In this document: positions 80-23,778 of the stretch, piece by piece | Position numbering within the stretch: position 1 is the stretch's first letter | How the letters are laid out: every line of letters begins with the position of its first letter | NCBI GenBank assembly: GCA_017484205.1 | Contig: JAFUTO010000002.1 | Span: 16,334 to 80,333 of the forward strand | Direction of reading: 5' to 3' | Source of the DNA: Bacilli bacterium | GTDB lineage: Bacteria; Bacillota_I; Bacilli_A; RF39; UBA660 | DNA: 64,000 nt | Made by a program: the position numbers and the translations under genes | Notes under the pieces: model-generated | The model's input: the letters and a program-made list of their open reading frames with translations, nothing else | Told to the model about the DNA's origin: nothing | The model's database searches: none

Positions 80-2215
80 ATGAAAAAAATATTTGAAAGA
101 GAATTTAGAGGAAGAAAATTAATAGTTGAACAAGGAGAATATGCTAAGCAAGCAGATGGTGCTGTATTAGTTCGTTATGGTGATACTGTAGTATTATCAA
201 CTGTAGTAGTTAGTGACAATGCTAATATATTATCTGATTTCTTCCCATTAATGGTTTTATATCAAGAAAAACTATATTCAGTAGGTAAAATACCTGGTGG
301 ATTTATTAAAAGGGAAGGTAGACCTACAGATGCTGCTACATTAGCTGCTCGTATGATTGATAGACCTATGAGACCAATGTTCCCTGAAGACTTTAGAAAT
401 GAAGTACAAGTTGTTAATACAATATTATCAGTTGATCCTGATTATTCACCAGAATTAACTGCAATGTTTGGTTCAAGTTTATGTACTTGTATATCTAAAA
501 TACCATTTGATGGTCCAATTGCTGGTGTAAAAGTAGGTAGAGTAGATGGTAAATTTATCATTAATCCAACACCGGATGAGTTAGAAAAATCAGATATTGA
601 TTTAACAGTAGCTGGTACTAAGCATGCTATTAACATGGTTGAAGCAGGTAGTAAAGAAGTATCAGAAGATGATATGTTAGAAGCCTTAATGTTTGGTCAT
701 GAAGCAGTTAAAGAATTATGTGCATTCCAAGAAGAAATAATTGGTGAAGTTGGACTAGCTAAGATGGAATATGAACACTTAGATATTGAAGATAGTCTAA
801 AAGATGAAATTTATGCTTTAGCGCATGATAGAATGGACTCTGCATTAAGAATTAAGGAAAAATTAGAAAAATATGAAGCTATAGCTAATTTAAAAGAAGA
901 GATAGTTACTAAATATGAAGAAGATAATAAAGAGTTAGATAAAGAAGAATTAAATGTTTTATTAACTAAGGTTAAATTAGTGTTAGAATCAATTGAATAT
1001 GATATATTTAGATCTATTACAGTTAATGAAAAGACAAGATCTGATGGAAGAGCAATGAATGAAATTAGACCATTATCTGCTGAAATAGATATTTTACCTA
1101 GAACACATGGTTCAGCTGTATTTACTAGAGGTGAAACTCAAGCCTTAGCTACAGTAACATTAGGTGCTTTAAATGAATATCAAGTGTTAGATGGGCTTTC
1201 ATTAGAAGCTGAAAAACATTTTATGTTACATTATAACTTCCCTCAATTCTCAGTAGGTGAAACTGGTAGATATGGTGCGCCTGGCAGAAGAGAAATAGGT
1301 CACGGTGCATTAGGTGAAAGATGTTTAAAACAAGTTATGCCTTCTGAAGATGAATTCCCATATACTGTAAGAGTAGTATCAGAAATATTAGAATCAAATG
1401 GATCTAGTTCGCAAGCTACTATATGTGCTGGTTGTATGGCATTAATGGCAGCTGGTGTACCTATTAAAAAACCAGTAGCTGGTATTGCAATGGGATTAAT
1501 TACATCAAAAGATGAAAAAGATTATACAATATTAACAGATATTCAAGGCATGGAAGACCATTTAGGTGATATGGACTTTAAAGTTGGTGGAACAAGAGAT
1601 GGTATTTGTTCACTTCAAATGGATATCAAAATTAAAGGTATAACTAAAGAAATATTAAAAGAAGCTTTAGCTAGTGCTCATGAAGCTAGAATGAAAATAT
1701 TAGATGTTATGGAAGGTGTTATAGCTAAACCAAGAGAAGAAGTATCTAAGTATGCACCAAAAACAATGACATTTATGATTAATCCAGATAAGATTAAAGA
1801 AGTTATTGGTAGAGGTGGAGATATGATTACTAAGATTATCTTAGAATCATCTAATGTTGAATCAGTAAACGACCCTAACGCTGTTAAAGTAGACTTAATG
1901 GATGATGGTAAAGTTATCATTTATCATAGTGATAAAGAAGTTATTGAAAAAACAGCTAACTGGATTAAAGATATTGCTAGAGAAGTAGAAGAAGGCAAAG
2001 TTTATACTGGTAAAGTAGTTAAAGTTGAAGATTTTGGTTGCTTCGTTGAATTATGGCCTGGTTGTGAAGGCATGGTACATGTGTCTCAATTAGATGAAAA
2101 ACGTGTAGAAAAACCTTCAGATATGGTTAAAGAAGGCGATGAAATAGTTGTTAAAGCTTTAGGATATGATAAGAAAGGTAGATTAAATCTATCTAGAAAA
2201 GAAGCTTTAAAATAG
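80..2215 (+). CDS. pnp: Polyribonucleotide nucleotidyltransferase (PNPase)
   Basis: 711 aa; two RNase PH-like domains, KH and S1 domains (C-terminal GKVVKVEDFGCFVEL...GMVHVSQL); RBS aaggagg 8 nt upstream. Confidence 0.95.
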   Translation: MKKIFEREFRGRKLIVEQGEYAKQADGAVLVRYGDTVVLSTVVVSDNANILSDFFPLMVLYQEKLYSVGKIPGGFIKREGRPTDAATLAARMIDRPMRPMFPEDFRNEVQVVNTILSVDPDYSPELTAMFGSSLCTCISKIPFDGPIAGVKVGRVDGKFIINPTPDELEKSDIDLTVAGTKHAINMVEAGSKEVSEDDMLEALMFGHEAVKELCAFQEEIIGEVGLAKMEYEHLDIEDSLKDEIYALAHDRMDSALRIKEKLEKYEAIANLKEEIVTKYEEDNKELDKEELNVLLTKVKLVLESIEYDIFRSITVNEKTRSDGRAMNEIRPLSAEIDILPRTHGSAVFTRGETQALATVTLGALNEYQVLDGLSLEAEKHFMLHYNFPQFSVGETGRYGAPGRREIGHGALGERCLKQVMPSEDEFPYTVRVVSEILESNGSSSQATICAGCMALMAAGVPIKKPVAGIAMGLITSKDEKDYTILTDIQGMEDHLGDMDFKVGGTRDGICSLQMDIKIKGITKEILKEALASAHEARMKILDVMEGVIAKPREEVSKYAPKTMTFMINPDKIKEVIGRGGDMITKIILESSNVESVNDPNAVKVDLMDDGKVIIYHSDKEVIEKTANWIKDIAREVEEGKVYTGKVVKVEDFGCFVELWPGCEGMVHVSQLDEKRVEKPSDMVKEGDEIVVKALGYDKKGRLNLSRKEALK

Positions 2216-2373: not shown

Positions 2374-4740
2374 ATGAAGAAAAAATATATTATCTTTTTA
2401 TTAGTTCTTTTTATGCCTTTTATGGTACTTGCAGAGGAGCAAACTGGCACAGCTGATCATGTGACAGTAAGAAGTGCGGCGACATCAAAATCTACTTGTG
2501 TTGCGAGTACTAGAGGATGCGCCGAAATAAATGGTTCAATAACTATATTAAGTGATATTATAGAAACAACTGATTCTAATGATGGTTGTCCGTCTAAAAA
2601 GTGGTATAAAGTAAAAGGTAATGATAAAGAGGATGGTAAAGAGTACGAAGGATATGGATGTTCTTCATATATAACAATTAATACCAATGTAGAACCTAAA
2701 ACAGAAGAGGACATTAAAGTTATATCTGATACTGTAATTGCTTATGGTACTATTAATAATGGTTATGTTTATTCAGAACCTGATACTGCTTCCGCTTTGA
2801 GAAGCGATCCAACTACAGAAAAAATTGCTATATTAGGTGATGCAACTAATACTAATGCTAGTGGTTGCAAAGAGATGTATAAAATTTTATATAGTAACTT
2901 AATTTCATATGCTTGTAAGGGTAATTTTACAAATGTTACTAGTGTATCTGTCATGAACACTGCTAGCATTTCATATAATTATGAAACAGAGTTAGCAAAG
3001 TTTCCTGAAAGCTATAGAAGTTATTTAAATAATTTACATAAATTGCATCCTAATTGGAGATTTTATGCTATAGATACTAATTTAAATTTTAGCGATGTAG
3101 TAGCAAGCGAGCAAAAACAAAGTTATTTATCTGGTTCTACTGATTCTGGATATTTTGTAACATTAGAACCAAACTATTATAATTGGAAAACTAATACTTG
3201 GACATCTCAAGATTCAGGCAGTTGGTATGTTGCATCAAAAGAAGCGACGGAGTATTATGTTGACCCTAGAACTTATTTAGATGAAAAACAGGTATTTGTA
3301 TTTGAAGATTCTAGAGCTTATTCTTATCAAGTGGACGCTGCTTTACAAAAAATGATTAATTATGCAGGTGCTAGTAACTTGTCTATTTCATACGATGGTA
3401 AAACATATAGCTATTACGATGCATTTAAAGCATCAGCAGCTTTTTCTAAAGTAAGTGCGATGAGTATATTAGCTAGATCTAGAGTTGAAACAGGCAAGTT
3501 TACTTCTAATAGTGTTAGTGGAACTCGTGCATTTTCATATAATGGTAATACATATTCAGGATATTACAATTATTATAATATAGGTGCATGGGCACACAGT
3601 GGAAGAGATGCTATTACTAATGGATTAATATATGCATACAATGCAGGATGGAATAATAGATATAAGGCTATTATTGAAGGTGCTACATTTATAGCTACTA
3701 AATATGTTTATTCAGGACAAGAAACACAATATTTTCAAAAATTTAATGTAAATCCATCAACTATATATAGTATTTATGGACATCAATATCAAACTAACAT
3801 ACAAGCTCCTACTATAGAAGGAACTTATGTATACTGGGGATTCCAAGATTCAGGTAATATTAATCAACCCGTAGTGTTCCATATACCAGTATATAAAAAT
3901 ATGCCAAGTAAAGCTGCAATTCAACCTACTAGTGGAAATCCAAATAACTGGCTTACATCTATTTCTGTTGATGGCAAGTCATTAACTAATTATACTGATG
4001 CTTCTGGTAAAGAAATCTTTGATGGAGATGTTTATTATAGCTATGATAATAACTGGGATGGTGTTGCTGATGCTGTTTATTCTAATAGTGTAATTAAGTA
4101 TACTGTTTCATATGATACGACTAAAATTAATATAAAAACATCACAAGCTGTATCAACTTCTACTGTAAGTAACACAGGTGATATTGCAATAAAAGATAAA
4201 ACTACTACTATTGATATAGTTGTAACAGCAGCAAACAAAACTACTAAAACATATAGATTAATTGTAACTAGGGATGATAAACCAACAACTGATGAAAATG
4301 GAAATGTTATTTATGCAGATATTGCAAAGGTATTGAGTAGTGTTAGTGTTAAATATAATTCAACATACATGTATGGTCTTGCTTTGGGTACAAGTTATGA
4401 TACAATTAAAAATGCTATTAAAAAAGTAGATAATAGTGTTACTGTTACGATAACTAAAAATAGTAATAACAATACTGGTAATTTAGCTACAGGTGATAAA
4501 ATTAGTATAAATAATGGTAAGGAAACTAAAACATACACTTATGTATTGTATGGAGATTTAAATGGCGATGGTAAAATAAGTGTCCTTGATTTAATACATA
4601 TTAGAAATATTATTTTGGATTCATCTAATCTTACAGGTGCGTATAGAGAAGCAGGAGATATTAACCATGATGGGAAGTCTAATGTTCTTGATTTGATTTT
4701 AGTAAGAAATGATATATTAGGAGATTCTATATCTCAATAG
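2374..4740 (+). CDS. Secreted dockerin-containing putative peptidoglycan hydrolase (SH3b-like + GH73/glucosaminidase-like + cadherin-like beta-sandwich + type-I dockerin)
   Basis: 788 aa; signal peptide MKKKYIIFLLVLFMPFMVLA; SH3b-like segment; ILARSRVETGKF...YNYYNIGAW...YSGQETQYFQKFNV resembles a GH73 active-site region; C-terminal duplicated dockerin repeats GDLNGDGKISVLDL.../GDINHDGKSNVLDL... Confidence 0.6.
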   Translation: MKKKYIIFLLVLFMPFMVLAEEQTGTADHVTVRSAATSKSTCVASTRGCAEINGSITILSDIIETTDSNDGCPSKKWYKVKGNDKEDGKEYEGYGCSSYITINTNVEPKTEEDIKVISDTVIAYGTINNGYVYSEPDTASALRSDPTTEKIAILGDATNTNASGCKEMYKILYSNLISYACKGNFTNVTSVSVMNTASISYNYETELAKFPESYRSYLNNLHKLHPNWRFYAIDTNLNFSDVVASEQKQSYLSGSTDSGYFVTLEPNYYNWKTNTWTSQDSGSWYVASKEATEYYVDPRTYLDEKQVFVFEDSRAYSYQVDAALQKMINYAGASNLSISYDGKTYSYYDAFKASAAFSKVSAMSILARSRVETGKFTSNSVSGTRAFSYNGNTYSGYYNYYNIGAWAHSGRDAITNGLIYAYNAGWNNRYKAIIEGATFIATKYVYSGQETQYFQKFNVNPSTIYSIYGHQYQTNIQAPTIEGTYVYWGFQDSGNINQPVVFHIPVYKNMPSKAAIQPTSGNPNNWLTSISVDGKSLTNYTDASGKEIFDGDVYYSYDNNWDGVADAVYSNSVIKYTVSYDTTKINIKTSQAVSTSTVSNTGDIAIKDKTTTIDIVVTAANKTTKTYRLIVTRDDKPTTDENGNVIYADIAKVLSSVSVKYNSTYMYGLALGTSYDTIKNAIKKVDNSVTVTITKNSNNNTGNLATGDKISINNGKETKTYTYVLYGDLNGDGKISVLDLIHIRNIILDSSNLTGAYREAGDINHDGKSNVLDLILVRNDILGDSISQ

Positions 4741-4753
4741 AAAAGGTGAAAAT

Positions 4754-6160
4754 ATGAAAAAAATAAATATAATTTTAACAATATTTCTTTCATTTTTATT
4801 CGTAGGTAATGTTAAAGCAGCTAGTGCTAAAATAACTGTTAGTCCTGCATCAAAAACAATATTAGTTGGAAATACAATTACAGTTACTGTTACAACATCA
4901 TCTACATCTACTTTGGGAGCTGTTAGTTATACTGTTCAATATAATTCAAATATATTATCTTTGACTTCAACTACTTCTCCAACAGGTGGAGCTAGAACTG
5001 TAGGATATTTTAATTCTAAAGGAAACACAACAATTTCCTATACATATACATTCAAAGCTATTTCTTCTGGTAATGCTACAATATCCATAGTAGGTGCCGA
5101 AGCAGGGGATGATAATGGAACAGCGTTATCAGTAACATCTAGTTCTGCTTCAATCAAAGTAATGACCCAAGCACAGTTGCAAGCTACATATAGTGGAAAT
5201 AACTATTTATCTGGGTTATCTATTGAAGGATATGAATTAGATCCTGCATTCAATAGAGATACGTTAGAATATAATGTAACATTAAAGCCTGAAACAGAAA
5301 ATGTTATAATATCTGCTACAAAAGAAGATTCTACTGCTAGTATTACTGGTGCTGGTGAAATAGCAGTGTCAGAAGGAGCTAATACAATTAGTATTGATGT
5401 TGTTGCTCAAAATGGTAATGTTAGGACTTATGTTATTAATGCTGTAGTTGAAGAATATGATCCGATTAATGTTACAGTGGATGGCAAAAATTATACGATT
5501 GTTAGAAGTACTAAAACACTTGAGTTTAATAATAATTTGTTTACTGCAACAAAAGAAAACATTACAGGTGAGGAAGTACCAGCATTTTATAACGAAATAA
5601 CTGATACTACTTTAATTGCTTTAAAAGACGAAGAAGGCAAGGTAGAATATTTCATCTATAAAGATGATAATTATAAAAAATTTAATGAACTTAAATTAGG
5701 TAGTGTTGATTTGATGGTTCTATCTACAAATGATATTCCTACTGAATATAAAAACGCTACTATTACAGTTAATGAAAAAGAATATGGGGCATATAAATTA
5801 AGTGATACATCTAGATTTTCTTTAATATATGGTACTAATTTAACAAACAATAATACAGGCTTATATGTGTATGATAATTTAGAAAATACATTACAAAGAT
5901 ATGATGCTGATATGGTTAATAATATGACAGCTAAAATTGATAAATTAACTAAGACTAATTATATATTGATTTTTACAAGCGCAGGTTTATTAATTTTGCT
6001 TATTGTCGCTTTGATACCTAAAAAACCAAAATCAAAAAGTGTAGATGAACAATCTATAGAGGAAACACCTGTATTAGATATTGACCAGGCAAAAGAAGAA
6101 CCAAAACCTAAGAAAGAAAAGAAACAACAAGTTAAAAAACAAGATAAAAAGAAGAAGTAA
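4754..6160 (+). CDS. Membrane-anchored cohesin-domain protein (cohesin + cadherin-like domain + conserved juxtamembrane domain + TM helix + Lys-rich cytoplasmic tail)
   Basis: 468 aa; signal peptide; N-terminal ~140 aa with cohesin-like pattern (ITVSPASKTILVGNTITVTV...YTVQYNSNILSL...ISYTYTFKAISSGNATISI); NNYLSGLSIEGYELDPAFNRDTLEYNV cadherin-like domain; C-terminal hydrophobic helix ILIFTSAGLLILLIVALI followed by a K/E-rich tail; lies 14 nt downstream of the dockerin gene. Confidence 0.6.
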   Translation: MKKINIILTIFLSFLFVGNVKAASAKITVSPASKTILVGNTITVTVTTSSTSTLGAVSYTVQYNSNILSLTSTTSPTGGARTVGYFNSKGNTTISYTYTFKAISSGNATISIVGAEAGDDNGTALSVTSSSASIKVMTQAQLQATYSGNNYLSGLSIEGYELDPAFNRDTLEYNVTLKPETENVIISATKEDSTASITGAGEIAVSEGANTISIDVVAQNGNVRTYVINAVVEEYDPINVTVDGKNYTIVRSTKTLEFNNNLFTATKENITGEEVPAFYNEITDTTLIALKDEEGKVEYFIYKDDNYKKFNELKLGSVDLMVLSTNDIPTEYKNATITVNEKEYGAYKLSDTSRFSLIYGTNLTNNNTGLYVYDNLENTLQRYDADMVNNMTAKIDKLTKTNYILIFTSAGLLILLIVALIPKKPKSKSVDEQSIEETPVLDIDQAKEEPKPKKEKKQQVKKQDKKKK

Positions 6161-6174
6161 TTCTTCTTTTTTGT
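6148..6174 (+). terminator. Rho-independent terminator
   Basis: agaagaag-taa-ttcttctt hairpin overlapping the stop codon, followed by tttttt. Confidence 0.65.
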
Positions 6175-6202
6175 ATACTATATGTCTACTTTACATTTAT
6201 TT

Positions 6203-6244
6203 TTGACAAAAGCATTTACATAATTATTGCTGCTTTGGTATAAT
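6203..6244 (+). promoter_or_regulatory. Promoter region: perfect TTGACA (6203-6208) and extended -10 TGgTATAAT (6236-6244)
   Basis: Both hexamers are visible, but their spacing is non-canonical (27 nt), so there may be two overlapping promoters; RBS aggagg precedes the ATG at 6268. Confidence 0.4.
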
Positions 6245-6267
6245 TAAGAAAATAGGAGGTATGTATT

Positions 6268-8157
6268 ATGAGGAAGTTTTTATTTTTAATACTTACATTA
6301 TTATTTATTCCTTTGTGCGCGAGTGCTGCAGAATATGATATATACGAAGATACTATAAGATACTATGGTACTATTAATTATAGCTTTGTATATTCAGAAG
6401 CTAATACTAAGTCTGTACTTGCATCCAAAGGAAATATATATGAAAGGGTAGCTATATTAGGTAATGCAACAAATGCTGATGATTTAAATGATGACTGCAT
6501 TAATATGTATAGCATTATATATCAAGAAAAAGTAGCTTATGTTTGTGCTAATAATGTTATTAATATTGTTTCTGCTGAAATATTAGAAACAAGTAATATA
6601 ACTTATAATTATGATAGGGAATTATCTAAATTTCCAGAAAGTTATAGGAGTTATATTGATACGCTACATCAACAACATCCTAATTGGAGATTTTATGCTA
6701 TAAATACTTATTTGGAATATTCAGATGTAGTAAATTATGAAAAAAATGCTAACTATATAGATAGTACAACTAATAATGTGTCATATTTTGATACATTAGA
6801 AGCTATAAATTATAACTATCAAAATGAAACTTATGTGTACCACAAAGATGGTAAATGGGTTACACCAAGTACAGAAGCAACGGCATATTTTATAGATCCA
6901 AGAAACTATTTAACTGAGGAAAAAGTGTTTGTATTTGAAGATTCAAGAACATATTCATATCAAACTCCGGAACCAGTAAAACAAATATTAAAATATGTTG
7001 ATAATAATGAAATTGATTATGCTGATGTATATAAACATGCCTCAAACTTTTCGAAACTTAGTCCATTAACTTTAATTGCAAGAGCTAGATTGGAAAATAC
7101 AACATATACAGGAAATGTAAATGAACAAATAGTAGAAAAAGCTACATATTTAGCAACTAAATATACTTATAATGGACAAGAAACACAATACTTCCAAAAA
7201 TTCAACGTAAATCCAAATACGTTAAGTAATACATATGCTCATCAATATGAAACAAATATTGAAAATCCAATTGTTGAAGCTTCCTATATATATGAAGCAT
7301 ATAAAGAAGCAGATGCGTTAGAAAATTCAATAGTTTTCCATATACCTGTATATAATAATATGCCAGGTGAAAGTTCTATAAAACCTCTTGATGGAAATCC
7401 AAATAACTGGTTATCAACTATAACTATTAATGATGAGCCAATAGATAATTTTGATGGAGATAATTATTATAGTTATGATAATAACTGGGATGGCGAGGAA
7501 GACGCAGTTTATCCTGACCATGTTATTACATATAATGCAGAATGGGATGCTGAAAGTATTACTATAGATGCGTCTGCAATATCAGAAGAAGCTGGTATAT
7601 TAGGAACTGGTGAAATATCACTTCCTGATAAAGAAACAATCGTTGATTTAGTTGTTATGGCAGAAAATAATACAACTAAAACATATCGTGTAGTTATTGT
7701 AAAAAATGATCCTCCATATCCAGATATTGATTGGGTATTGAGTCAAATTGCTATTAAATACGATGACAAATATTTAAGTGGGTTATCAATTGGTAGTGAT
7801 TATAATGTACTAAAAGATGCTATTACAAATATAAGCGACTTAGTTACAACTGAAATAACTCCAAGAGAAGGTAATACAACAGGAACTTTTGCTACAGGGG
7901 ATATGATAACAGTAACTAGTGGTCCACAAGTTCGTAATTTTACATATGTATTATATGGTGACTTGAATGGTTCTGCAACAATTAGTATAATAGACTTAGT
8001 AGCAATTAGAAACATAATATTAGATGAATCTAATTTAGAGGGAGCATATAGAGAAGCAGGGGATGTAAATCGTGACGGAAAAGTTAGTATACTTGATCTA
8101 GTAGCTGTTAGGAACGATTTATTAGGTACTCATATTGTTCAATTGCCACAAGAATAG
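6268..8157 (+). CDS. Secreted dockerin-containing paralog of 2374..4740 (SH3b-like + truncated GH73-like region + cadherin-like + dockerin); possibly catalytically inactive
   Basis: 629 aa; signal peptide; shares the KFPESYRSY..LH..HPNWRFYAI and YxGQETQYFQKFNVNP blocks with 2374..4740 but lacks ~45 aa including the YNYYNIGAW block; C-terminal dockerin whose first repeat is degenerate (GDLNGSATISIIDL). Confidence 0.6.
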   Translation: MRKFLFLILTLLFIPLCASAAEYDIYEDTIRYYGTINYSFVYSEANTKSVLASKGNIYERVAILGNATNADDLNDDCINMYSIIYQEKVAYVCANNVINIVSAEILETSNITYNYDRELSKFPESYRSYIDTLHQQHPNWRFYAINTYLEYSDVVNYEKNANYIDSTTNNVSYFDTLEAINYNYQNETYVYHKDGKWVTPSTEATAYFIDPRNYLTEEKVFVFEDSRTYSYQTPEPVKQILKYVDNNEIDYADVYKHASNFSKLSPLTLIARARLENTTYTGNVNEQIVEKATYLATKYTYNGQETQYFQKFNVNPNTLSNTYAHQYETNIENPIVEASYIYEAYKEADALENSIVFHIPVYNNMPGESSIKPLDGNPNNWLSTITINDEPIDNFDGDNYYSYDNNWDGEEDAVYPDHVITYNAEWDAESITIDASAISEEAGILGTGEISLPDKETIVDLVVMAENNTTKTYRVVIVKNDPPYPDIDWVLSQIAIKYDDKYLSGLSIGSDYNVLKDAITNISDLVTTEITPREGNTTGTFATGDMITVTSGPQVRNFTYVLYGDLNGSATISIIDLVAIRNIILDESNLEGAYREAGDVNRDGKVSILDLVAVRNDLLGTHIVQLPQE

Positions 8158-8166
8158 GGTGATTAT

Positions 8167-9543
8167 ATGAAAAAAATATATACAATTATTACAATTGTTA
8201 TATCGTTATTATTTATAACTAATGTAAAAGCTGATGGTACAAGTGCTACACTAACACCATCGCCTTTATCTTGTTATGAAGGGGAAACATGTAGTATAAC
8301 TTTGAATCTTAATTCAAATATTGAAATAGGTGGTGTTAGTTATAAACTTTCATATGATACTTCAATGTTAGAATTTGTAGATGGTAAGAAGAATAAGATA
8401 GCGGATGGTATTATACAGGTTATTGATGAACCTCGTGCTACATCTGCTTCTTATACTTATAAATTTAAATCATTGAAAACAGGTGAAAGCACAGTTAAGA
8501 TAGTGAGTATGGAAGTTTCTGATGCAAATGAAGAAATGCCAAATGATATTACCCCAAGCACATTGCCTAGTGCCTCAGTATCGATGACAACTAGACCTGT
8601 AACAGCTCCTACGACACCAACTACAACAACTAAAAAAAGTAACAATGCTAATTTATCAAATTTGTCAATTGATGGTGTATCATTGACTCCTGCTTTTAAT
8701 TCCAGTACTACTACATATACAGCAAGTTTAAACCCTGATGCAACTAGTATAAATATAAGTGCATCAACTGAAAATAGTGGTGCTAAGGTATCAGGTGCAG
8801 GAACAATACCTGTATCAAAAGGTAATAATAATATAGAAATAAAAGTTACAGCAGAAGATGGCACAACTAAAACGTATACTATTACAGCAAATGTCCCTGA
8901 TTCAACAGTAGGAACTATAAATGATAAAAATATTGTTACAAAAAGTGATGATAATCCAATCAGTGATTCGTTTTCAGAAACAACTATTAATATTGATGGA
9001 CAAGATGTGCCTGCTTATTATAATGATGCTACAGGTACTACAATAGTAGCTGTTGATAATGGTAATGGTGAAGTAGAATATTATACTGTTGACGAAGATG
9101 GGAATTTAGGAAAATATGATGAAGTTGATTCAGATAAAATAGATTTAATGTCATTAGCAGTAGCTTTAGGTGATGTTCCTGAAGGATATGTTGAAACTAC
9201 AATTATTATTGATGGTAAAGAATATAAGGCATATAAAAAAGCTGATGACTCAAGATTCGTATTATTATATGGTACAAACTTAGCGACAGGTGATACAGGA
9301 TTCTTTGTTTATGATACAGTAGATAGAACAATTCAAAAATATGATGTTGATAGTTTTAATGATTTGTTAGAAAAAAATGCTAAATTATGGATACTATTAT
9401 GGATTTTAATATTTACATGTATAGGGTTATTAATTCTATTAATAATCGCGTTAATATTATTGAGTAAAAGAGATAAAGTTATAAAAAAATATAAAAATTA
9501 TATACAAGGTAAAAAAGAGGAGATAAATGAAGAAAGAAGTTAG
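8167..9543 (+). CDS. Membrane-anchored cohesin-domain protein, paralog of 4754..6160
   Basis: 458 aa; signal peptide; cohesin-like N-terminal domain (..SYKLSYDTSMLEF...ASYTYKFKSLKTGESTVKIV); T/P-rich linker; cadherin-like domain (NANLSNLSIDGVSLTPAFNSSTTTYTASL); juxtamembrane domain conserved with 4754..6160 (DVPAYYN...GEVEY...DLM...GKEYKAYK..DSRF.LLYGTNL..TG.FVYD); TM helix plus basic tail. Confidence 0.6.
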   Translation: MKKIYTIITIVISLLFITNVKADGTSATLTPSPLSCYEGETCSITLNLNSNIEIGGVSYKLSYDTSMLEFVDGKKNKIADGIIQVIDEPRATSASYTYKFKSLKTGESTVKIVSMEVSDANEEMPNDITPSTLPSASVSMTTRPVTAPTTPTTTTKKSNNANLSNLSIDGVSLTPAFNSSTTTYTASLNPDATSINISASTENSGAKVSGAGTIPVSKGNNNIEIKVTAEDGTTKTYTITANVPDSTVGTINDKNIVTKSDDNPISDSFSETTINIDGQDVPAYYNDATGTTIVAVDNGNGEVEYYTVDEDGNLGKYDEVDSDKIDLMSLAVALGDVPEGYVETTIIIDGKEYKAYKKADDSRFVLLYGTNLATGDTGFFVYDTVDRTIQKYDVDSFNDLLEKNAKLWILLWILIFTCIGLLILLIIALILLSKRDKVIKKYKNYIQGKKEEINEERS

Positions 9544-9561
9544 TTCTTTCTTCATTTATTA
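9529..9561 (+). terminator. Rho-independent terminator overlapping the 3' end of 8167..9543
   Basis: gaagaaagaa-gttag-ttctttcttc hairpin followed by atttatt. Confidence 0.55.
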
Positions 9562-9570
9562 TGGTATAAT
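9540..9570 (+). promoter_or_regulatory. Extended -10 promoter (TGgTATAAT at 9562-9570) for the glycosyltransferase gene
   Basis: tggtataat motif 17 nt upstream of RBS aggtgg and the ATG at 9587. Confidence 0.4.
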
Positions 9571-9586
9571 AAATATAGGTGGTAGT

Positions 9587-10666
9587 ATGAAAAAAATATT
9601 AATAACTTGTTTGGATTTACATTACAATAAAATTAATAATGCAATGTTAGAATTTATTAACTGTATCGATTTAACTAAAAATGAAGTCGATTTAATAGCT
9701 ATGGAAACAGGAGAACTGCTATTACAATTAGATAAGCGAATTAATGTTACGTACTATAGAGATTATATGTTAATGCCAAGTAAGTTTTTATATAATTTAA
9801 AAAAGAAATATATAGTTGATGATTTATATAATCAACAAAGATTTGCGTTTAAAAAAGAGTACGATATTGCTATCTCATACTATGGTCATAATAACTATGT
9901 TGATATGATATCTGCGTCAGTTAAAGCTAAGAAGAAAATAATATGGGTACATAATACTATAGGCGAGGTATCAAATTATTATAGAAAGAAACTAATTAAA
10001 AAATATAAATATTTTGATAATATAGTTTTTACTACTAAGAATAACATGAATATATTCAACAACGCATTACCTTGCTATAAAGACAAGACTATATGTATCA
10101 ATAATGTTATAGATGGTAATAAAGTAATTAATTCTTCTAAAGAGAATACTACAATTAAATTAAGTCAAGATTACAATATTATAAATATATCTAATTTGAA
10201 CAAAGAAAATAATATTGATAAATTAATAGATATTCAAAAATATTTATTTTCTAAAGGAAAGAATGTAAAAATATATGTAATTGGTGATGGAAGTTTATCA
10301 TATGAAATAGCTGAAAAAATGAGAAAAAATAATTTAACTGATTCATTTATAATGTTGGGAATGCAAAAAAATCCATATAATATATTAAAACAAGCTAATT
10401 TATATATAGATGTATCATCTTCTGATAAATTCAATATAACTTTATTAGAATCAGTCGTATTAGATGTTCCATTTATTGCTAATGAAACTGTTGTTAATAA
10501 AGAAATATTATCTATAATACCTAAGAATGGTGGTAAGGTATGCAATATAGAAAATATGGGGAATGAAATTATAAAGCAAATGAAAACATATCAAGATCAT
10601 ATCCCATTTGATTATAAAAAATATGAAGATGATATTATAGAAAAAATAAATAAATTATTAAAATAA
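9587..10666 (+). CDS. Glycosyltransferase, GT4/GT1-like
   Basis: C-terminal half matches the GT1/GT4 pattern (IYVIGDGSL...EIAEKMRK..L.D.FIMLGMQKNPYNILKQANLYIDVSSSDKFNITLLESVVLDVPFIANE); start chosen at MKKILIT (RBS aggtgg) rather than the ORF-track ATG at 9527, which overlaps the upstream gene. Confidence 0.55.
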   Translation: MKKILITCLDLHYNKINNAMLEFINCIDLTKNEVDLIAMETGELLLQLDKRINVTYYRDYMLMPSKFLYNLKKKYIVDDLYNQQRFAFKKEYDIAISYYGHNNYVDMISASVKAKKKIIWVHNTIGEVSNYYRKKLIKKYKYFDNIVFTTKNNMNIFNNALPCYKDKTICINNVIDGNKVINSSKENTTIKLSQDYNIINISNLNKENNIDKLIDIQKYLFSKGKNVKIYVIGDGSLSYEIAEKMRKNNLTDSFIMLGMQKNPYNILKQANLYIDVSSSDKFNITLLESVVLDVPFIANETVVNKEILSIIPKNGGKVCNIENMGNEIIKQMKTYQDHIPFDYKKYEDDIIEKINKLLK

Positions 10667-10695
10667 AACATATAATTTAATACCATTTACATAAT

Positions 10696-10723
10696 TTGAC
10701 AAATAAAATATAAATGGTATAAT
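10696..10723 (+). promoter_or_regulatory. Strong sigma-A promoter: TTGACA, 16-nt spacer, TGgTATAAT
   Basis: ttgaca at 10696-10701; extended -10 tggtataat at 10715-10723; fires into an ORF-free GC-enriched region. Confidence 0.55.
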
Positions 10724-11270
10724 TATATTATCAATTGATGGCACATTATTCTAGTCAATTGAATTTACTATGAAGGTGGAATTAAAAAGCCACTAAAGAG
10801 CACATCTGTGAAGCTTTTGGTGCTTGCTTCTTACGCCCAGTTTGGGGTGAGTGCTGGAAGAAAGAATGCCGGGCGTCCGTAATGGCATACGAAAACGACC
10901 CTTCATTCGTGGAGACCTATCTTTGTATAACACCTATACACGTAAGTTGATGGATGTCATACGAACTAGGATTAAACCTGCTATGTGGGGAAACTTGCGA
11001 GTAGCGTAGCTTGTCTTGAGTGGACAATGGGGATAATTACTTATTTATATTATTTCTAGCTAAAATAATATAAAGGCATTATAATTTGAAACATTGTTTG
11101 CAAAAAAGAATTAATAGTAAATGTTGATGAGGAAAACTCCTAGAGTGTTAAAAATATAGGATTGCAGTGTGTACTAAGTGGTAATCAAGCCATATAGACA
11201 GCTATATTATCTTCTATAAAGGGGAACCGCTATACTGGTAACGGTATAGTAGAAGATAGAGAAATTCTGC

Positions 11271-11299
11271 TTGACCTAAGACACAAAGTTTACTATATT
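11271..11299 (+). promoter_or_regulatory. Possible internal promoter TTGACC, 17-nt spacer, TATATT
   Basis: ttgacc at 11271-11276, tatatt at 11294-11299. Confidence 0.3.
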
Positions 11300-11327
11300 A
11301 AGCCAAATTGAGATTTTTTTTGAATAT

Positions 11328-11348
11328 TAAGAGCTTATGCTCTTTTTA
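11328..11348 (+). terminator. Intrinsic terminator/attenuator immediately upstream of the RBS of 11365..11943
   Basis: aagagc-ttat-gctctt hairpin followed by ttta; lies between the candidate promoters and the ATG at 11365. Confidence 0.5.
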
Positions 11349-11364
11349 CGTTGTAGGTGATAAT

Positions 11365-11943
11365 ATGAACGATAAGGAATTTATAAAAAAGATTAAAAAA
11401 GAAGAAAAAGAACATAAAAAGAAAACTAATAAAAAGTGGATTGTTTTTGTGACTATATTATCATTAGTAATATCTATATTGTTTTCGTTATTATGTGAAA
11501 TACTTATGCCTTCAGCTAATACAATAGTTGGAATTATAGTAATGTTTTTATTTATAGGTATAGGTATAGTTTTTGACATATTAGGTGTATCTGTTACAAG
11601 TGCGGATATAAAACCTTATCATAGTATGGCAGCTAAAAAGATTAAAGGTGCTAAAGTGGCAGTTAAATTGAAACAAAATACATCTAAAGTATCATCTGTT
11701 TTTTGTGATGTTATAGGAGATATTTGTGGAATTGTATCTGGTTCTGCAGGTGTATATATAGCTTCTAAATTAGCTATATCATTAAATATTAATCCTTTAA
11801 TATCATCACTATTAATAACAGGCATTATATCAAGTATTACGATAGGTGGTAAAGCAATAGGTAAAGGATATGCTATAAATAATAGTACAATGATACTATA
11901 TGATTTTTCTAAATTCCTATCAGTATTTTATAAAATTAAATAG
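11365..11943 (+). CDS. Hypothetical integral membrane protein
   Basis: 192 aa from MNDKEF (RBS aggtga); K/E-rich N-terminus then 3-4 predicted TM helices; the ORF-track start at 11308 lacks an RBS. Confidence 0.55.
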   Translation: MNDKEFIKKIKKEEKEHKKKTNKKWIVFVTILSLVISILFSLLCEILMPSANTIVGIIVMFLFIGIGIVFDILGVSVTSADIKPYHSMAAKKIKGAKVAVKLKQNTSKVSSVFCDVIGDICGIVSGSAGVYIASKLAISLNINPLISSLLITGIISSITIGGKAIGKGYAINNSTMILYDFSKFLSVFYKIK

Positions 11944-12037
11944 TTTATAATTAGTTTACACTTATAAACTATTTTTTTATTGCAAAAGTTGAAAGTGCAA
12001 TTCTCAATATGCTATAATGATATTGGTGATAATAGAA

Positions 12038-13252
12038 ATGGACAAGAGACTAAAAGCAGTATTAGATAAAGAACTATATAGAGAGCAACATAATATTGAG
12101 TTAATTGCTTCTGAGAATTTTGTTTCAAAAGATATTATGGAATTACAAGGTAGTATCCTTACAAATAAATATGCAGAAGGATATCCACATAAAAGGTATT
12201 ATGGTGGATGTGAAAATGTAGATGTAGCAGAGGAATTAGCTATAGAGTATGTATGCAAGCTATTTAATGCAAAATATGCGAATGTACAACCACATAGTGG
12301 TTCTAGCGCTAATATGGCAGTATATAAAGCATTATTAAATCCTGGTGATAAAATAATGGGTTTAGACTTAGATCAAGGTGGACATCTAACACATGGATAT
12401 AAAGTTAGTTTTAGTGGTAAAGATTATGTAAGTGTTAGTTATGGATTAAATAAGGATACAGAATTAATTGACTATGATGAAGTAGAAAGAATTGCTATAT
12501 TAGAAAAACCAAAACTAATTGTAGCAGGTGCTTCAGCATATTCAAGAATAATTGATTTTAAAAGATTTAGAAGTATTGCAGATAAAGTAGGGGCATATTT
12601 GATGGTTGATATGGCACATATTGCAGGGTTAGTAGCCACAGGACTTCATCCTTCTCCAGTAGAATATGCTGATGTTGTTACATCAACTACACATAAGACA
12701 TTAAGAGGCCCAAGAGGTGGATTTATCTTAACAAATGATGAAGATATAATTAAAAAAATAAATAAAACTGTATTCCCTGGTATACAAGGAGGACCTTTAA
12801 TGCATGTTATAGCTGCTAAGGCTGAATGTTTCTATGAGGCATTAGATCCAAATTTTAAAACATACGGAGAACAAGTTATTAAAAATATAAAAGCAATGTC
12901 TGATACTTTTATAGAAAATGGGTATCATGTAGTATCAAATGGTACAGATAATCATTTAATTTTACTAGATGTTAAATCTAAATTAAATATAAGTGGTGCA
13001 GAAGCAGAAGAAAAATTAGGTAGAATAAATATAACTGTTAATAAAAATAAGATTCCAAACGATACATTAGGTGCAAAAGATGCTTCTGGAATAAGAATTG
13101 GTAGTCCAGCAATGACTACAAGAGGTTTGAAAGAAAAAGATTTTATAGAAATAGCTAAAATAATTATTGATGCATTAGAAAATAATGAAAGTGAACAAAA
13201 ATTAATAGAAAGGGTAGAAAAAATAGTAATGGAATATCCATTATATGAGTAA
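12038..13252 (+). CDS. glyA: Serine hydroxymethyltransferase
   Basis: [41 protein letters not shown] (PLP-lysine region) motifs; start at MDKRLKAV with RBS ggtga. Confidence 0.93.
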
Positions 13253-13261
13253 AGTGGTGTT

Positions 13262-14107
13262 ATGGGAAAATTAATAGATGGTAAAGAGTTAAGTTCAAAA
13301 ATTAAAGAAGAAATTAAAAATGAAGTCAAAGGTTTTATGATTAAACCTTGCTTAGCAGTAATACAAATTGGCGATGATGAAGCAAGTAATGTATATGTAG
13401 GCGCTAAAGAAAAAGCATGTAATGAGGTAGGCATTTATTTTAAACATTTAAAATATGATGTTAATGTTTTAGAAAAAGAAATAATTAATAAAATAATAGA
13501 ATTAAATAATGATGAATATGTTAATGGTATATTATTACAATTACCTATACCTAGTAATTTAAATGAACAACGTATAATTAATCATATAACAAGTGGTAAA
13601 GATGTTGATGGATTAAATGATATTAATGTTGGTAGATTAAATAATAATAAAGAAGGTATGATTCCATGTACAGCAGCAGGTATAATTAGGCTATTAGAAG
13701 AATATGAAGTACCTATGGAAGGTAAAAATGTTGTAATAGTAGGTAGAAGTAAATTAGTAGGTAAACCATTAATAAGTTTATTTTTAAAGAAAGATGCGAC
13801 AGTTACAGTATGTCATTCTAAAACTGAAAATTTAAGTGATATAACAAAAACAGCAGATATTTTAGTAGTAGCTACTGGTAGTAAGTGGTTAATTGGCAAA
13901 AATGATATCAAAGAAGATGCTGTAGTTATTGATGTTGGAGTTAGTAGAGTGGATGGAAAAATATATGGTGATGTAAATACTGATGAAGTTAAAAAAGTTG
14001 CATCACTTATAACTCCTTCAGTAGGTGGAGTAGGACCAATGACAGTTGCAATGTTACTTTCTAATGTTATCAAAAGTTATCACAAGATGAATAAAACAAC
14101 TAATTAA
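13262..14107 (+). CDS. folD: Bifunctional methylenetetrahydrofolate dehydrogenase/cyclohydrolase
   Basis: 281 aa; typical FolD N-terminus (IDGK..S..IK) and NAD(P)-binding VVIVGRSKLVGKP motif; adjacent to glyA. Confidence 0.9.
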   Translation: MGKLIDGKELSSKIKEEIKNEVKGFMIKPCLAVIQIGDDEASNVYVGAKEKACNEVGIYFKHLKYDVNVLEKEIINKIIELNNDEYVNGILLQLPIPSNLNEQRIINHITSGKDVDGLNDINVGRLNNNKEGMIPCTAAGIIRLLEEYEVPMEGKNVVIVGRSKLVGKPLISLFLKKDATVTVCHSKTENLSDITKTADILVVATGSKWLIGKNDIKEDAVVIDVGVSRVDGKIYGDVNTDEVKKVASLITPSVGGVGPMTVAMLLSNVIKSYHKMNKTTN

Positions 14108-14198: not shown

Positions 14199-14275
14199 GG
14201 CGAGATAGCTCAGTTGGCTAGAGCATCTGGTTCATACCCAGCAGGTCGGGAGTTCAAATCTCTCTCTCGCTACCA
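14199..14275 (+). tRNA. tRNA-Met (anticodon CAU)
   Basis: Hand-folded cloverleaf: acceptor GGCGAGA/TCTCGCT, D-arm GCTC..GAGC, anticodon loop TTCATAC, T-arm GGGAG-TTCAAAT-CTCTC, encoded CCA. Confidence 0.85.
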
Positions 14276-15893: not shown

Positions 15894-16052
15894 AATAATA
15901 CCACCTTTTTTGAATAATACGTATTCTAACATTGAATATATGAAAAGTCAAGAAATACTATTTGTATTAATCGCTTTTTATTTACTTTTATATAGAAATA
16001 ATATATAATTAAGTATGAAAAGTATAATTTGTTATACTTTAAGGAGGTAAAA

Positions 16053-16253
16053 ATGAAAAATAAGTATGTAGGAATTGCTAAAGTAGGTGAAAAAGGTCAA
16101 ATAGTGATTCCTAAAGAAGCTAGGGATATGTTTGATATAAAACCAGGTGATTCTGTAGTAATTTTATGTGATAAAAAGAAAGGAATGGCTATTGTTAAAT
16201 CAGAAATAATCGAAGATACTATGAGTAAGATAATGCCTAAAGGTGATGAATAA
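16053..16253 (+). CDS. AbrB/MazE/SpoVT-family DNA-binding protein
   Basis: 66 aa; VGEKGQIVIPKEARDMFDIKPGDSV swapped-hairpin motif; RBS ggaggt. Confidence 0.6.
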   Translation: MKNKYVGIAKVGEKGQIVIPKEARDMFDIKPGDSVVILCDKKKGMAIVKSEIIEDTMSKIMPKGDE

Positions 16254-22938: not shown

Positions 22939-23778
22939 ATGCAAAATAATAAATTGGAAACAATAACAAATTTGTTTCAAGGAAGTGAAATTAGAAGTGT
23001 TTGGGATAGCGATAAAGAAGATTACTATTTTAGTGTAGTAGATGTTATAGGAGTTTTGACGAACGCTAATATACCAAGAAACTATTGGAGTGATTTAAAA
23101 CGAAAATTAAAGGAAGAAGGAAGCGAACTGCACGAAAATATCGTGCAGTTGAAAATGACATCTAGAGATGGCAAAATGAGAAATACAGATGTCTTAGATA
23201 CAGAAGGCATATTTAGGCTTATAGAATCAGTACCATCACCAAAAGCAGAACCATTCAAAGCATGGTTAGCTAAATTAGGTAAAGAAAAAGTAGATGAGGT
23301 GTTTGACCCATCAAAAGGAATAGACCAAATGATTGATTTTTACCTAATGAAAGGTTATGACTTAGATTGGATTAAAGAAAGAGTTAATGCAATTATAGAT
23401 AGGAAGATATTAACTGGTACTTGGAAAGAGTTAGGAATAAATGGAAACAAAGAATATGCTATATTAACAAATGAGATATATAAAGAATGGTCTGGTATGA
23501 CCGCGAAGGAATATAAAAAACATAAAGGGATAAGAAAAGAAAATTTGAGAGATAATATGTCTGACATAGAAATAGCTTTAACTACTTTAGGAGAGATAGC
23601 AACTAAAGAAATAGCTAAGGAACAAAAACCACAAGGATTAAAAGAAAATATGAATGTTGCTAGAAGAGGAGGTCATGCGGCTAAGGTAGCTAGAGAAGAT
23701 ATAGAAAAGAATTTAGGTAAATCTGTCATAACTAAAGATAATAATTTAAATTATCGATATGATGATTTAAAAAAATAA
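22939..23778 (+). CDS. DinD-family (DNA-damage-inducible protein D-like) protein with Bro-N-like N-terminal domain
   Basis: 279 aa; C-terminal KGIRKENLRDNMSDIEIALTTLGEIATKE...ARRGGHAAKVAREDIEKNLG aligns by eye with the E. coli DinD C-terminal region; N-terminus is Bro-N/antirepressor-like. Confidence 0.55.
   Translation: MQNNKLETITNLFQGSEIRSVWDSDKEDYYFSVVDVIGVLTNANIPRNYWSDLKRKLKEEGSELHENIVQLKMTSRDGKMRNTDVLDTEGIFRLIESVPSPKAEPFKAWLAKLGKEKVDEVFDPSKGIDQMIDFYLMKGYDLDWIKERVNAIIDRKILTGTWKELGINGNKEYAILTNEIYKEWSGMTAKEYKKHKGIRKENLRDNMSDIEIALTTLGEIATKEIAKEQKPQGLKENMNVARRGGHAAKVAREDIEKNLGKSVITKDNNLNYRYDDLKK

Follow-up and report, generated by a model that had tools for sequence, protein, structure and literature searches.

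OLE (Ornate Large Extremophilic) RNA, represented in Rfam by the family RF01071 (Puerta-Fernandez et al., 2006; Fernando and Breaker, 2024, PMC11332333), is among the largest and best-conserved noncoding RNAs (ncRNAs) of bacteria, and the biochemical activity of the class is still unknown. The RNA works in trans, in the form of a ribonucleoprotein bound to the membrane (PMC12265935, PMC7936274), and according to a recent proposal it is dimeric and may even span the membrane (PMC12265935). Here we analyzed a stretch of 64,000 nucleotides (nt) from a Bacilli bacterium (GenBank assembly GCA_017484205.1, contig JAFUTO010000002.1, positions 16,334 to 80,333 of the forward strand), which is called the window below and numbered from its first letter. 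We are almost certain that positions 10722–11322 on the plus strand of the window are an OLE RNA gene (ole) and that positions 11365–11943 are oapA, the gene of the membrane-protein partner of this RNA.

The gene oapA is the commonest neighbor of ole. Its product OapA (OLE-associated protein A) has four transmembrane segments, a cytoplasmic cluster of positive charges and weak homology to the CNNM domain of MpfA, and it contains two strictly conserved aspartates, mutation of which (PM1) is dominant-negative (PMC12265935, PMC11332333, PMC7936274). OapB needs a GNRA tetraloop plus a bulge of one nucleotide in helix P13, a site that was defined in B. halodurans (PMC7936274). P4a is described as the region bound by OapA (PMC12265935, PMC12286853) and the strands J4a/5 and J6/7 as the site of OapC (YbxF) (PMC9723947, PMC12286853). 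The latter site is a kink-turn at the base of P5, characterized by a C-G pair in the C-helix, a 3-nt bulge and tandem G-A/A-R pairs. The cryo-electron microscopy (cryo-EM) study of Kretsch et al. (2025, PMC12286853) further reports a homodimer of the Clostridium acetobutylicum OLE RNA, in which loop L9.3 forms a symmetric kissing loop (bridge B3) with the covarying sequences GGCC, GAUC and AGCU. The published OLE RNAs comprise a full-length type, variant 1 with short P7–P9 and often without the OapB site in P13 (TANB77), and variant 2 without P7 and P8 (RF39) (PMC11332333). The same survey of 2024 listed OLEs by the thousands, among them reduced forms from gut lineages that are uncultured, and remarked that reduced-genome gut lineages are largely devoid of OapB and OapC.

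Identification of the OLE RNA gene

An earlier note, made from the sequence alone, had proposed for this region a large structured ncRNA with its own promoter and terminator or, alternatively, a large regulatory leader. The cmscan search that it suggested was run with the whole window against Rfam 15 at the gathering threshold and returned two hits, a tRNA (14199–14272) and OLE RNA. The OLE hit (RF01071; 10722–11322, plus strand) had a score of 378.1 bits at a gathering score of 50 (E = 1.6e-107) and spanned positions 1–616 of the 616 model positions without truncation. When the structure of the model was projected on the window copy, 147 of the 159 pairs were present and 136 were canonical. 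The ncRNA proposal was therefore right. The note had recognized a structured RNA but not its family, OLE being absent from the families that it had excluded by eye.

The same Rfam search gave no match in the window to GOLLD, ROOL or the raiA motif. These RNAs are likewise large and highly structured, and the biochemical function of all of them is unknown; GOLLD, ROOL and OLE are also alike in forming homo-oligomers (PMC12286853). The architecture and the conserved nucleotides of the window RNA, however, are specifically those of OLE. The copy is a real and well-formed member of an RNA class that is already known and that standard Rfam annotation detects.

The base composition and the coding capacity of the region agree with what had been claimed for it. 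The GC content was 0.47 at 10800–10999 and 0.38 at 10700–10899, compared to 0.18–0.25 in the immediate flanks and 0.299 in the whole window. The region can be called free of open reading frames (ORFs) at any sensible threshold, as the longest ORFs within 10724–11307 encode 52 amino acids (aa) on the plus strand and 46 and 36 aa on the minus strand. One might still assume that these ORFs (10851–11009, plus strand, with a GTG start; 10793–10933 and 10917–11027, minus strand) encode small proteins missed by ORF thresholds. We regard this as having next to no probability, since the RNA family match explains the region completely, the helices overlapped by the ORFs vary in a compensatory manner as RNA, and no ORF has an ATG start together with an evident ribosome binding site (RBS). 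The minimum free energy (MFE) of 10730–11349 was −161.9 kcal/mol, compared to −138.4 ± 5.7 kcal/mol for dinucleotide shuffles (z = −4.1), and none of 20 shuffles was as stable, which bears out the reading as a structured RNA. The unconstrained MFE fold recovered the architecture of OLE, including the long-range helices P1 and P3.

The downstream gene and its relatives

The gene oapA (11365–11943, plus strand) starts 43 nt after the RNA match on the same strand, with an ATG at 11365 and the RBS AGGTGA at 11355–11360. The predicted protein of 192 aa fits OapA. It has four hydrophobic segments, a lysine-rich N-terminus with 11 lysine or arginine residues among the first 24 residues, and a basic loop between the second and the third transmembrane segment with eight such residues out of 35. 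All 23 OapA homologs in an alignment share D71, D115 and D119 (CDVIGD), of which D115 and D119 may be the counterparts of the PM1 aspartates. Searches of Pfam and NCBIfam with the protein yielded only matches below threshold (CNNM/DUF21 with 19.5 bits, below the cut-off of 28.4; TIGR01218 with 16.6 bits), and a sequence search of the PDB gave nothing meaningful, the best match being an unrelated eukaryotic protein (E = 0.19). A curated OapA model appears not to exist, and membership was therefore argued from features and synteny. The identical protein in NCBI is listed as a 'hypothetical protein' from a Bacilli bacterium MAG (metagenome-assembled genome) and can now be annotated as OapA. Its contig is a metagenome scaffold of 116 kb (ENA ERZ28654966, scaffold_197).

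A scan of species-representative genomes with an OapA alignment gave 80 loci, the best of them 55% identical in OapA and nearly all of them from uncultured gut MAGs. Among the first 20 loci, Rfam placed an OLE directly 5′ of the OapA homolog and on the same strand in 18 cases. With an nhmmer profile of these Rfam-found OLEs, an OLE was detected upstream of the OapA homolog in 76 of the 80 loci. None of the four loci without an upstream OLE (L011, L019, L026, L073) contains masked sequence; in L011, L019 and L073 oapA lies directly 3′ of another ORF, leaving no room for the RNA. In these four loci the OLE may be located elsewhere or have been lost, or the genes may be paralogous. The closest relatives (L083, L085, L086, L087) have OapA proteins that are 78–82% identical to that of the window.

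The MAGs of the relatives come from guts and bioreactors and carry the labels Bacilli, Mollicutes, Erysipelotrichaceae or Oscillospiraceae; their habitat suggests an anaerobic lifestyle. Some contigs with ole and oapA, among them L018, L023, L037, L038, L043, L054, L061, L070, L071 and others, have titles of Muribaculaceae or Bacteroidaceae MAGs, and the title 'Candidatus Scybalousia' of one relative maps to Bacteroidales in the NCBI taxonomy. Wrong binning or labelling of Bacillota contigs is the probable reason, and the survey of 2024 suspected the same for its own hits outside Bacillota (PMC11332333). Such MAG labels were treated as unreliable binning or naming and were not counted in favor of an occurrence of OLE beyond Bacillota.

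Conserved fold and covariation

Sixty-nine full-length OLEs including the window copy were aligned with MAFFT, the structure of the model was projected on the alignment and the pairs were counted. Standard pairs occupied 85.4% of the pair cells, compared to 38.6–46.4% when the 3′ partners were slid by 1–3 columns. Double-sided changes were present in 120 of the 156 pairs, and none of 500 column shuffles reached any of the observed covariation measures. About 180 alignment columns were invariant across all 69 OLEs. This covariation search in related genomes, which the earlier note had also suggested, supports almost every helix, namely P4a, P5, P6, P7, P8, the P9 arm, the GAGGAAA hairpin, P12, P12.1, P12.2, P13, P14 and P14.1. 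Covariation was weak for the distal stems of P9, which are AT-rich and poorly aligned by MAFFT, and for a local hairpin at the 5′ end (CAAUUGA/UCAAUUG, 10732–10738 and 10755–10761), which is 58% paired in the relatives. The MFE fold pairs the 5′ arm of this hairpin (10732–10738) with the sequence AAUUGA of the 3′ tail rather than with its local partner.

P1 and P3 are long-range helices outside the Rfam model and were tested separately. The self-complementary L9.3 loop and the strands of the kink-turn are likewise not part of this model. P1 closes the whole RNA by pairing of its 5′ strand UGGC (10739–10742, plus strand, as are all helices below) with GCCA at 11302–11305. On the MAFFT alignment it was paired in only 16.9%, because the 3′ tails are misaligned there. 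An alignment-free test supported P1: an exact complement of the 5′ strand occurred within the last 45 nt of 65 of the 69 OLEs, with the covarying pair types UGGC/GCCA, UGGU/ACCA, UGGA/UCCA and CGGC/GCCG. P3, the helix proposed to span the membrane (PMC12265935), encloses domain 1. Its 5′ strand AUUUACUAU (10763–10771) has a perfect 9-bp complement, AUAGUAAAU, at 11114–11122, and 84% of its cells were paired in the 69 sequences, with many compensatory changes.

Within domain 1, the P4a hairpin (10775–10794; GGUGGA/GCCACU with the loop AUUAAAAA) was 92% paired, with double changes in five of six pairs and with the loop nucleotides UAAAA invariant in the alignment. The adjoining J4a/5 strand of the kink-turn (k-turn), …CAUC-UGU-GAAG (10795–10813), has the core C-NNN-GA-RR in 68 of the 69 OLEs. 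Its cryo-EM partner J6/7, CGUGGAGACC (10908–10917) contains GGAGA in 65 of them, the window copy with GUGGAGA included. With the older J5/6 partner of the k-turn, the pair C85–G144 is kept and the linker is 1 nt shorter in the window. The P5/P5.1 hairpin (10814–10860) comprises 20 pairs, 11 of them with double changes, was 90.7% paired and has an invariant GCCCA loop (10835–10839). P6 (10864–10908) entered the covariation count as two helices, and its loop region AAUGGCAU (10881–10888) is nearly invariant. In the close relative L087 (800–1511) a deletion of 26 nt removes the distal part of P6 including this otherwise nearly invariant loop; either the assembly is wrong here, or the OLE is a natural form with a truncated P6. 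P7 (10916–10970) is of full length, with 17 bp and a terminal loop of 20 nt; it was 85.8% paired, with double changes in 14 pairs. P8 (10978–11004) was 99.1% paired, with double changes in nine of 11 pairs.

The P9 arm (P9 to P9.3, 11013–11110) is capped by L9.3, which in the window contains the palindrome UAGCUA (11057–11062) with AGCU at 11058–11061. This is the predicted homodimerization loop. A 4-nt palindrome containing G and C (GGCC, AGCU, GUAC or CUAG) was present in L9.3 of all 65 relatives that keep the arm, compared to 45% in shuffles. GUAC occurred in 9–10 of these 65 relatives (usually as UGUACA in alignment columns 428–437; carriers L003, L004, L009, L022, L029, L041, L047, L050, L051 and L065), and it is not listed beside GGCC, GAUC and AGCU in the passage of PMC12286853 considered here. 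At the level of the sequences, the GUAC palindromes are further covariation support for the predicted intermolecular kissing loop. The set of 69 OLEs independently reproduces, as a pattern of predicted pairs, the covariation of P1, P3 and the L9.3 kissing loop reported from cryo-EM.

Domain 1 is followed by a small hairpin, GAGGAAAACUC (11129–11139), and the conserved sequence CUAGAGUGU; the hairpin was 100% paired and is nearly invariant in sequence. The 3′ domain (11149–11301) contains P12 (11149–11159 and 11293–11301), P12.1 (11168–11172 and 11281–11285), P12.2 (11185–11190 and 11269–11274), P14 (11208–11215 and 11251–11258) and P14.1 (11229–11237 and 11242–11250) with a GUAA tetraloop at 11238–11241. 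These helices were 92–100% paired, almost all of them with double changes.

Comparison with the published OLE types

The window RNA resembles full-length OLEs in its length of about 600 nt and in the presence of P1, P3, P4a, P5–P9.3 and P12–P14.1, including P7 and P8. It also shares with them the GCCCA and AAUGGCAU loops, the GAGGAAA hairpin, both k-turn strands, the palindromic L9.3 and the location of oapA directly 3′. Judged by its predicted helices, the copy is of the full-length type, because P7, P8 and P9 are full. With variant 1 it shares the loss in P13, as this variant often lacks the nucleotides of the OapB site and is found in gut bacteria that are uncultured and have reduced genomes (PMC11332333). 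An assignment to variant 1 (TANB77 type) was rejected, since P7, P8 and the P9 arm have full length in the window and only the P13 loss is common to both. The similarity to variant 2 (RF39 type; PMC11332333) lies in the type of host, uncultured gut Bacilli of low GC content; this assignment was ruled out by the presence of P7 and P8, both of which covary.

Some relatives are more reduced: P7 is short in L003, L004, L015 and L028, and L037, L057, L058 and L069 lack the distal P9 arm. By their predicted structures, the relatives span a continuum of OLE reductions. In L084 (430–1158) the OapA protein and the 3′ third of the OLE are identical to those of L083, and the 5′ two-thirds of the OLE resemble the type of L003 and L004 with a short P7 and a GGUAAC loop in P13. 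This OLE is either a chimeric assembly or a product of recombination within ole.

Loss of the OapB site in P13

In the window, P13 (11192–11207) is truncated to a stem of 6 bp with an ACAG loop (AUAUAG-ACAG-CUAUAU), having neither a GNRA tetraloop nor a single-nucleotide bulge. The P13 fold with GNRA and bulge was present in 57 of the 68 relatives, and most of the others still have G-GNRA-C. Within the set of 69 OLEs, the site was lost only in the window copy, L012, L052 and L069. The closest relatives L083, L085, L086 and L087 have the same short P13 stem with differing loops (UUA, AUA, UUCA), and we conclude from these sequences that the predicted loss in P13 characterizes the clade and does not stem from an error of sequencing. 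The weaker published OapB site, the GNRA loop of P14.1 (here GUAA, 11238–11241), is retained.

The absence of the primary OapB site is one of several points that weigh against our interpretation of the locus. Two further differences from full-length OLEs are the missing small hairpin at model positions 424–435 and the J5/6 strand, which falls short of the consensus by one nucleotide. On account of these differences, the particle may have another composition than that of Halalkalibacterium halodurans. The link to the experimentally studied OapA is suggested by features and synteny, and the function in the host would be carried over from two distant model species. Finally, the host, a MAG from a gut or a bioreactor, is not an evident extremophile; an occurrence of OLE in anaerobes, however, is already covered by the literature. 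Nothing of this counts against the identity as an OLE itself. Loss of the P13 OapB site has also been reported for variant OLEs (PMC11332333) and therefore does not exclude membership in the family.

The same differences might be taken as signs of decay, i.e., of a non-functional OLE remnant in a reduced genome, all the more as reduced OLE variants have been noted in small-genome gut lineages (PMC11332333). We consider decay highly improbable. The copy keeps 136 canonical pairs and shares the invariant columns of the alignment, its promoter (see below) is a perfect consensus and conserved, and oapA is intact with all family-invariant residues. Moreover, the differences seen in the close relatives are compensatory, and the truncated P13 stem persists there while its loops vary, which points to purifying selection on the modified form.

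Ten ORFs of the window, small ones included, were compared with Pfam in search of OapB (YbzG; KOW motif, SBB fold) and OapC (YbxF; L7Ae family, PF01248): no KOW or L7Ae match was obtained among them, the searched sequence being 64 kb only and oapB and oapC being normally unlinked to ole. Judging from the P13 sequence, the complex probably works without OapB at the P13 site in the host lineage, which agrees with the remark on reduced-genome gut lineages in PMC11332333. We tentatively put forward, as a possibility that falls somewhat short of an even chance, that the window copy and its closest relatives form an otherwise full-length OLE sub-lineage without the primary OapB site that has kept P7–P9, the k-turn, the dimerization loop and OapA. 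If, in addition, the genome is also devoid of oapB, it would contain a natural OapB-independent OLE particle, which would show the dispensable parts of the complex and would stand between the full-length and the variant 1 forms that have been published. The clade-specific loss of the OapB site in P13 marks this site as dispensable in nature. This clade-specific loss in an otherwise full-length OLE is the only mildly new point of the locus.

Expression signals of ole and oapA

The near-consensus promoter claimed for the region was found to be the sole 12/12 match to a sigma-70 promoter in 10300–12300. It consists of the -35 region TTGACA (10696–10701), a spacer of 16 nt and the extended -10 region TG-TATAAT (10715–10723), and thus extends from 10696 to 10723 on the plus strand. 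The promoter is kept in the closest relatives L083, L085, L086 and L087, although the sequence 5′ of it diverges. An 11–12/12 promoter, usually with the TG extension, precedes 54 of the 69 related OLEs, its end coinciding with the 5′ edge of the RNA model; control windows from coding sequences scored at most 9/12. The spacing of the promoter predicts a transcriptional start at about position 10730, two bases 5′ of the first helix. The probable OLE transcript thus extends from about 10730 to about 11349 on the plus strand. The window ole differs in having this strong promoter of its own from the H. halodurans ole, which belongs to a long polycistronic transcript (PMC12265935).

As the earlier note had stated, a terminator-like element is located in front of the small membrane-protein gene. 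It is a modest hairpin with a U-tract (11329–11349, plus strand; AAGAGC-UUAU-GCUCUU followed by UUUUA), whose 6-bp stem with three G-C pairs (11329–11344) is followed by TTTTTACG. The site was unique in the 2-kb scan (0.6 expected) and has a free energy of −8.0 kcal/mol (z = −3.4). It is kept in the close clade, and 23 of the 69 wider relatives have an equivalent hairpin with T-tract. The hairpin is the probable 3′ end of OLE and is probably leaky as a terminator. In the 2-kb scan (10300–12300) no convincing oapA promoter was found, and the sole candidate was a 10/12 match (TTGACC-N17-TATATT, 11271–11299, plus strand) within the conserved 3′ domain of OLE. This match could be an internal oapA promoter or a by-product of the AT-rich conserved RNA sequence. 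Since oapA has no convincing promoter, we infer that its expression most likely depends on transcripts that read through the weak terminator hairpin.

This arrangement also bears on the second proposal of the earlier note, according to which the region would be a cis-acting regulatory leader, riboswitch-like or an attenuator, that controls oapA and perhaps glyA-folD via the hairpin at 11329–11349. Such control would be compatible with the location of the region directly 5′ of a gene on the same strand, with a terminator-like hairpin 5 nt before the RBS and with the absence of a strong promoter of oapA itself. However, the region matches over its full length a family of RNAs known to act in trans, and its fold is closed by P1 without involvement of the terminator. 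In several relatives the OLE is located 345–2123 nt away from oapA, only 23 of the 69 have a hairpin with T-tract, and glyA has an 11/12 promoter of its own. In addition, no riboswitch family reached its gathering score anywhere in the window in the Rfam search. A regulatory leader is thus without support and very unlikely, in contrast to a trans-acting OLE RNA.

Proposed role of the OLE RNA and OapA

The mechanism and the stress roles of OLE have been described for H. halodurans and C. acetobutylicum (PMC12265935, PMC10898510). By analogy with these two OLE RNAs, the transcript of about 620 nt would fold into two domains and homodimerize by means of several bridges, among them the L9.3 kissing loop. 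Dimers of OapA would attach to the RNA near P2 and P4a and keep it at the cell membrane or perhaps extending through it. The ribonucleoprotein formed in this way may help the cell to withstand short-chain alcohols such as ethanol, cold, excess Mg2+ and poor carbon sources. The window copy adds nothing fundamental to this picture, because standard Rfam annotation finds it and OLEs numbering in the thousands were already contained in the survey of 2024; in practical terms it has a small but real value.

Genomic neighborhood

The gene order around the RNA gene is glycosyltransferase / ole-oapA / glyA-folD, and the order oapA-glyA-folD is kept in the closest relatives. It differs from that of the H. 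halodurans cluster, nusB-folD-xseA-xseB-ispA-ole-oapA-dxs, with genes of isoprenoid synthesis and DNA repair. The separate glyA promoter (TTGAAA-N18-TG-TATAAT, 11989–12018, plus strand) is located 5′ of glyA, encoding serine hydroxymethyltransferase, and folD (12017–14107, plus strand). The gene callers place the start of glyA at 12038 (404 aa), as opposed to the ATG at 12017 that overlaps the -10 box. The tRNA gene (14199–14272, plus strand; 66 bits, anticodon CAU) lies just 3′ of folD.

Upstream of ole, four consecutive secreted-looking proteins of 788, 468, 629 and 458 aa and a GT4-type glycosyltransferase (9527–10666, overlapping the preceding ORF by 17 nt) are encoded at 2374–10666 on the plus strand. 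This stretch, which directly precedes ole, resembles a gene cluster for the cell surface or for glycosylation. A polynucleotide phosphorylase (PNPase) with RNase PH, KH and S1 domains is encoded at 80–2215 (plus strand), 8.5 kb from ole. PnpA has been named as a candidate OLE partner (PMC12265935), and the proximity of the PNPase gene to ole may be a coincidence.

Nearly half of the window is taken up by ORFs of 7149, 2358 and 730 aa (25481–46930, 47074–54150 and 54167–56359, plus strand), whose products have N-termini resembling signal peptides and are probably giant surface or adhesin proteins. Further genes on the plus strand, at 16029–16253 and 22939–23778, encode a small DNA-binding protein of the MazE/AbrB type, which adjoins an ABC transporter pair, and a BRO-N domain protein. 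Proteins with a BRO-N domain are often derived from phages.

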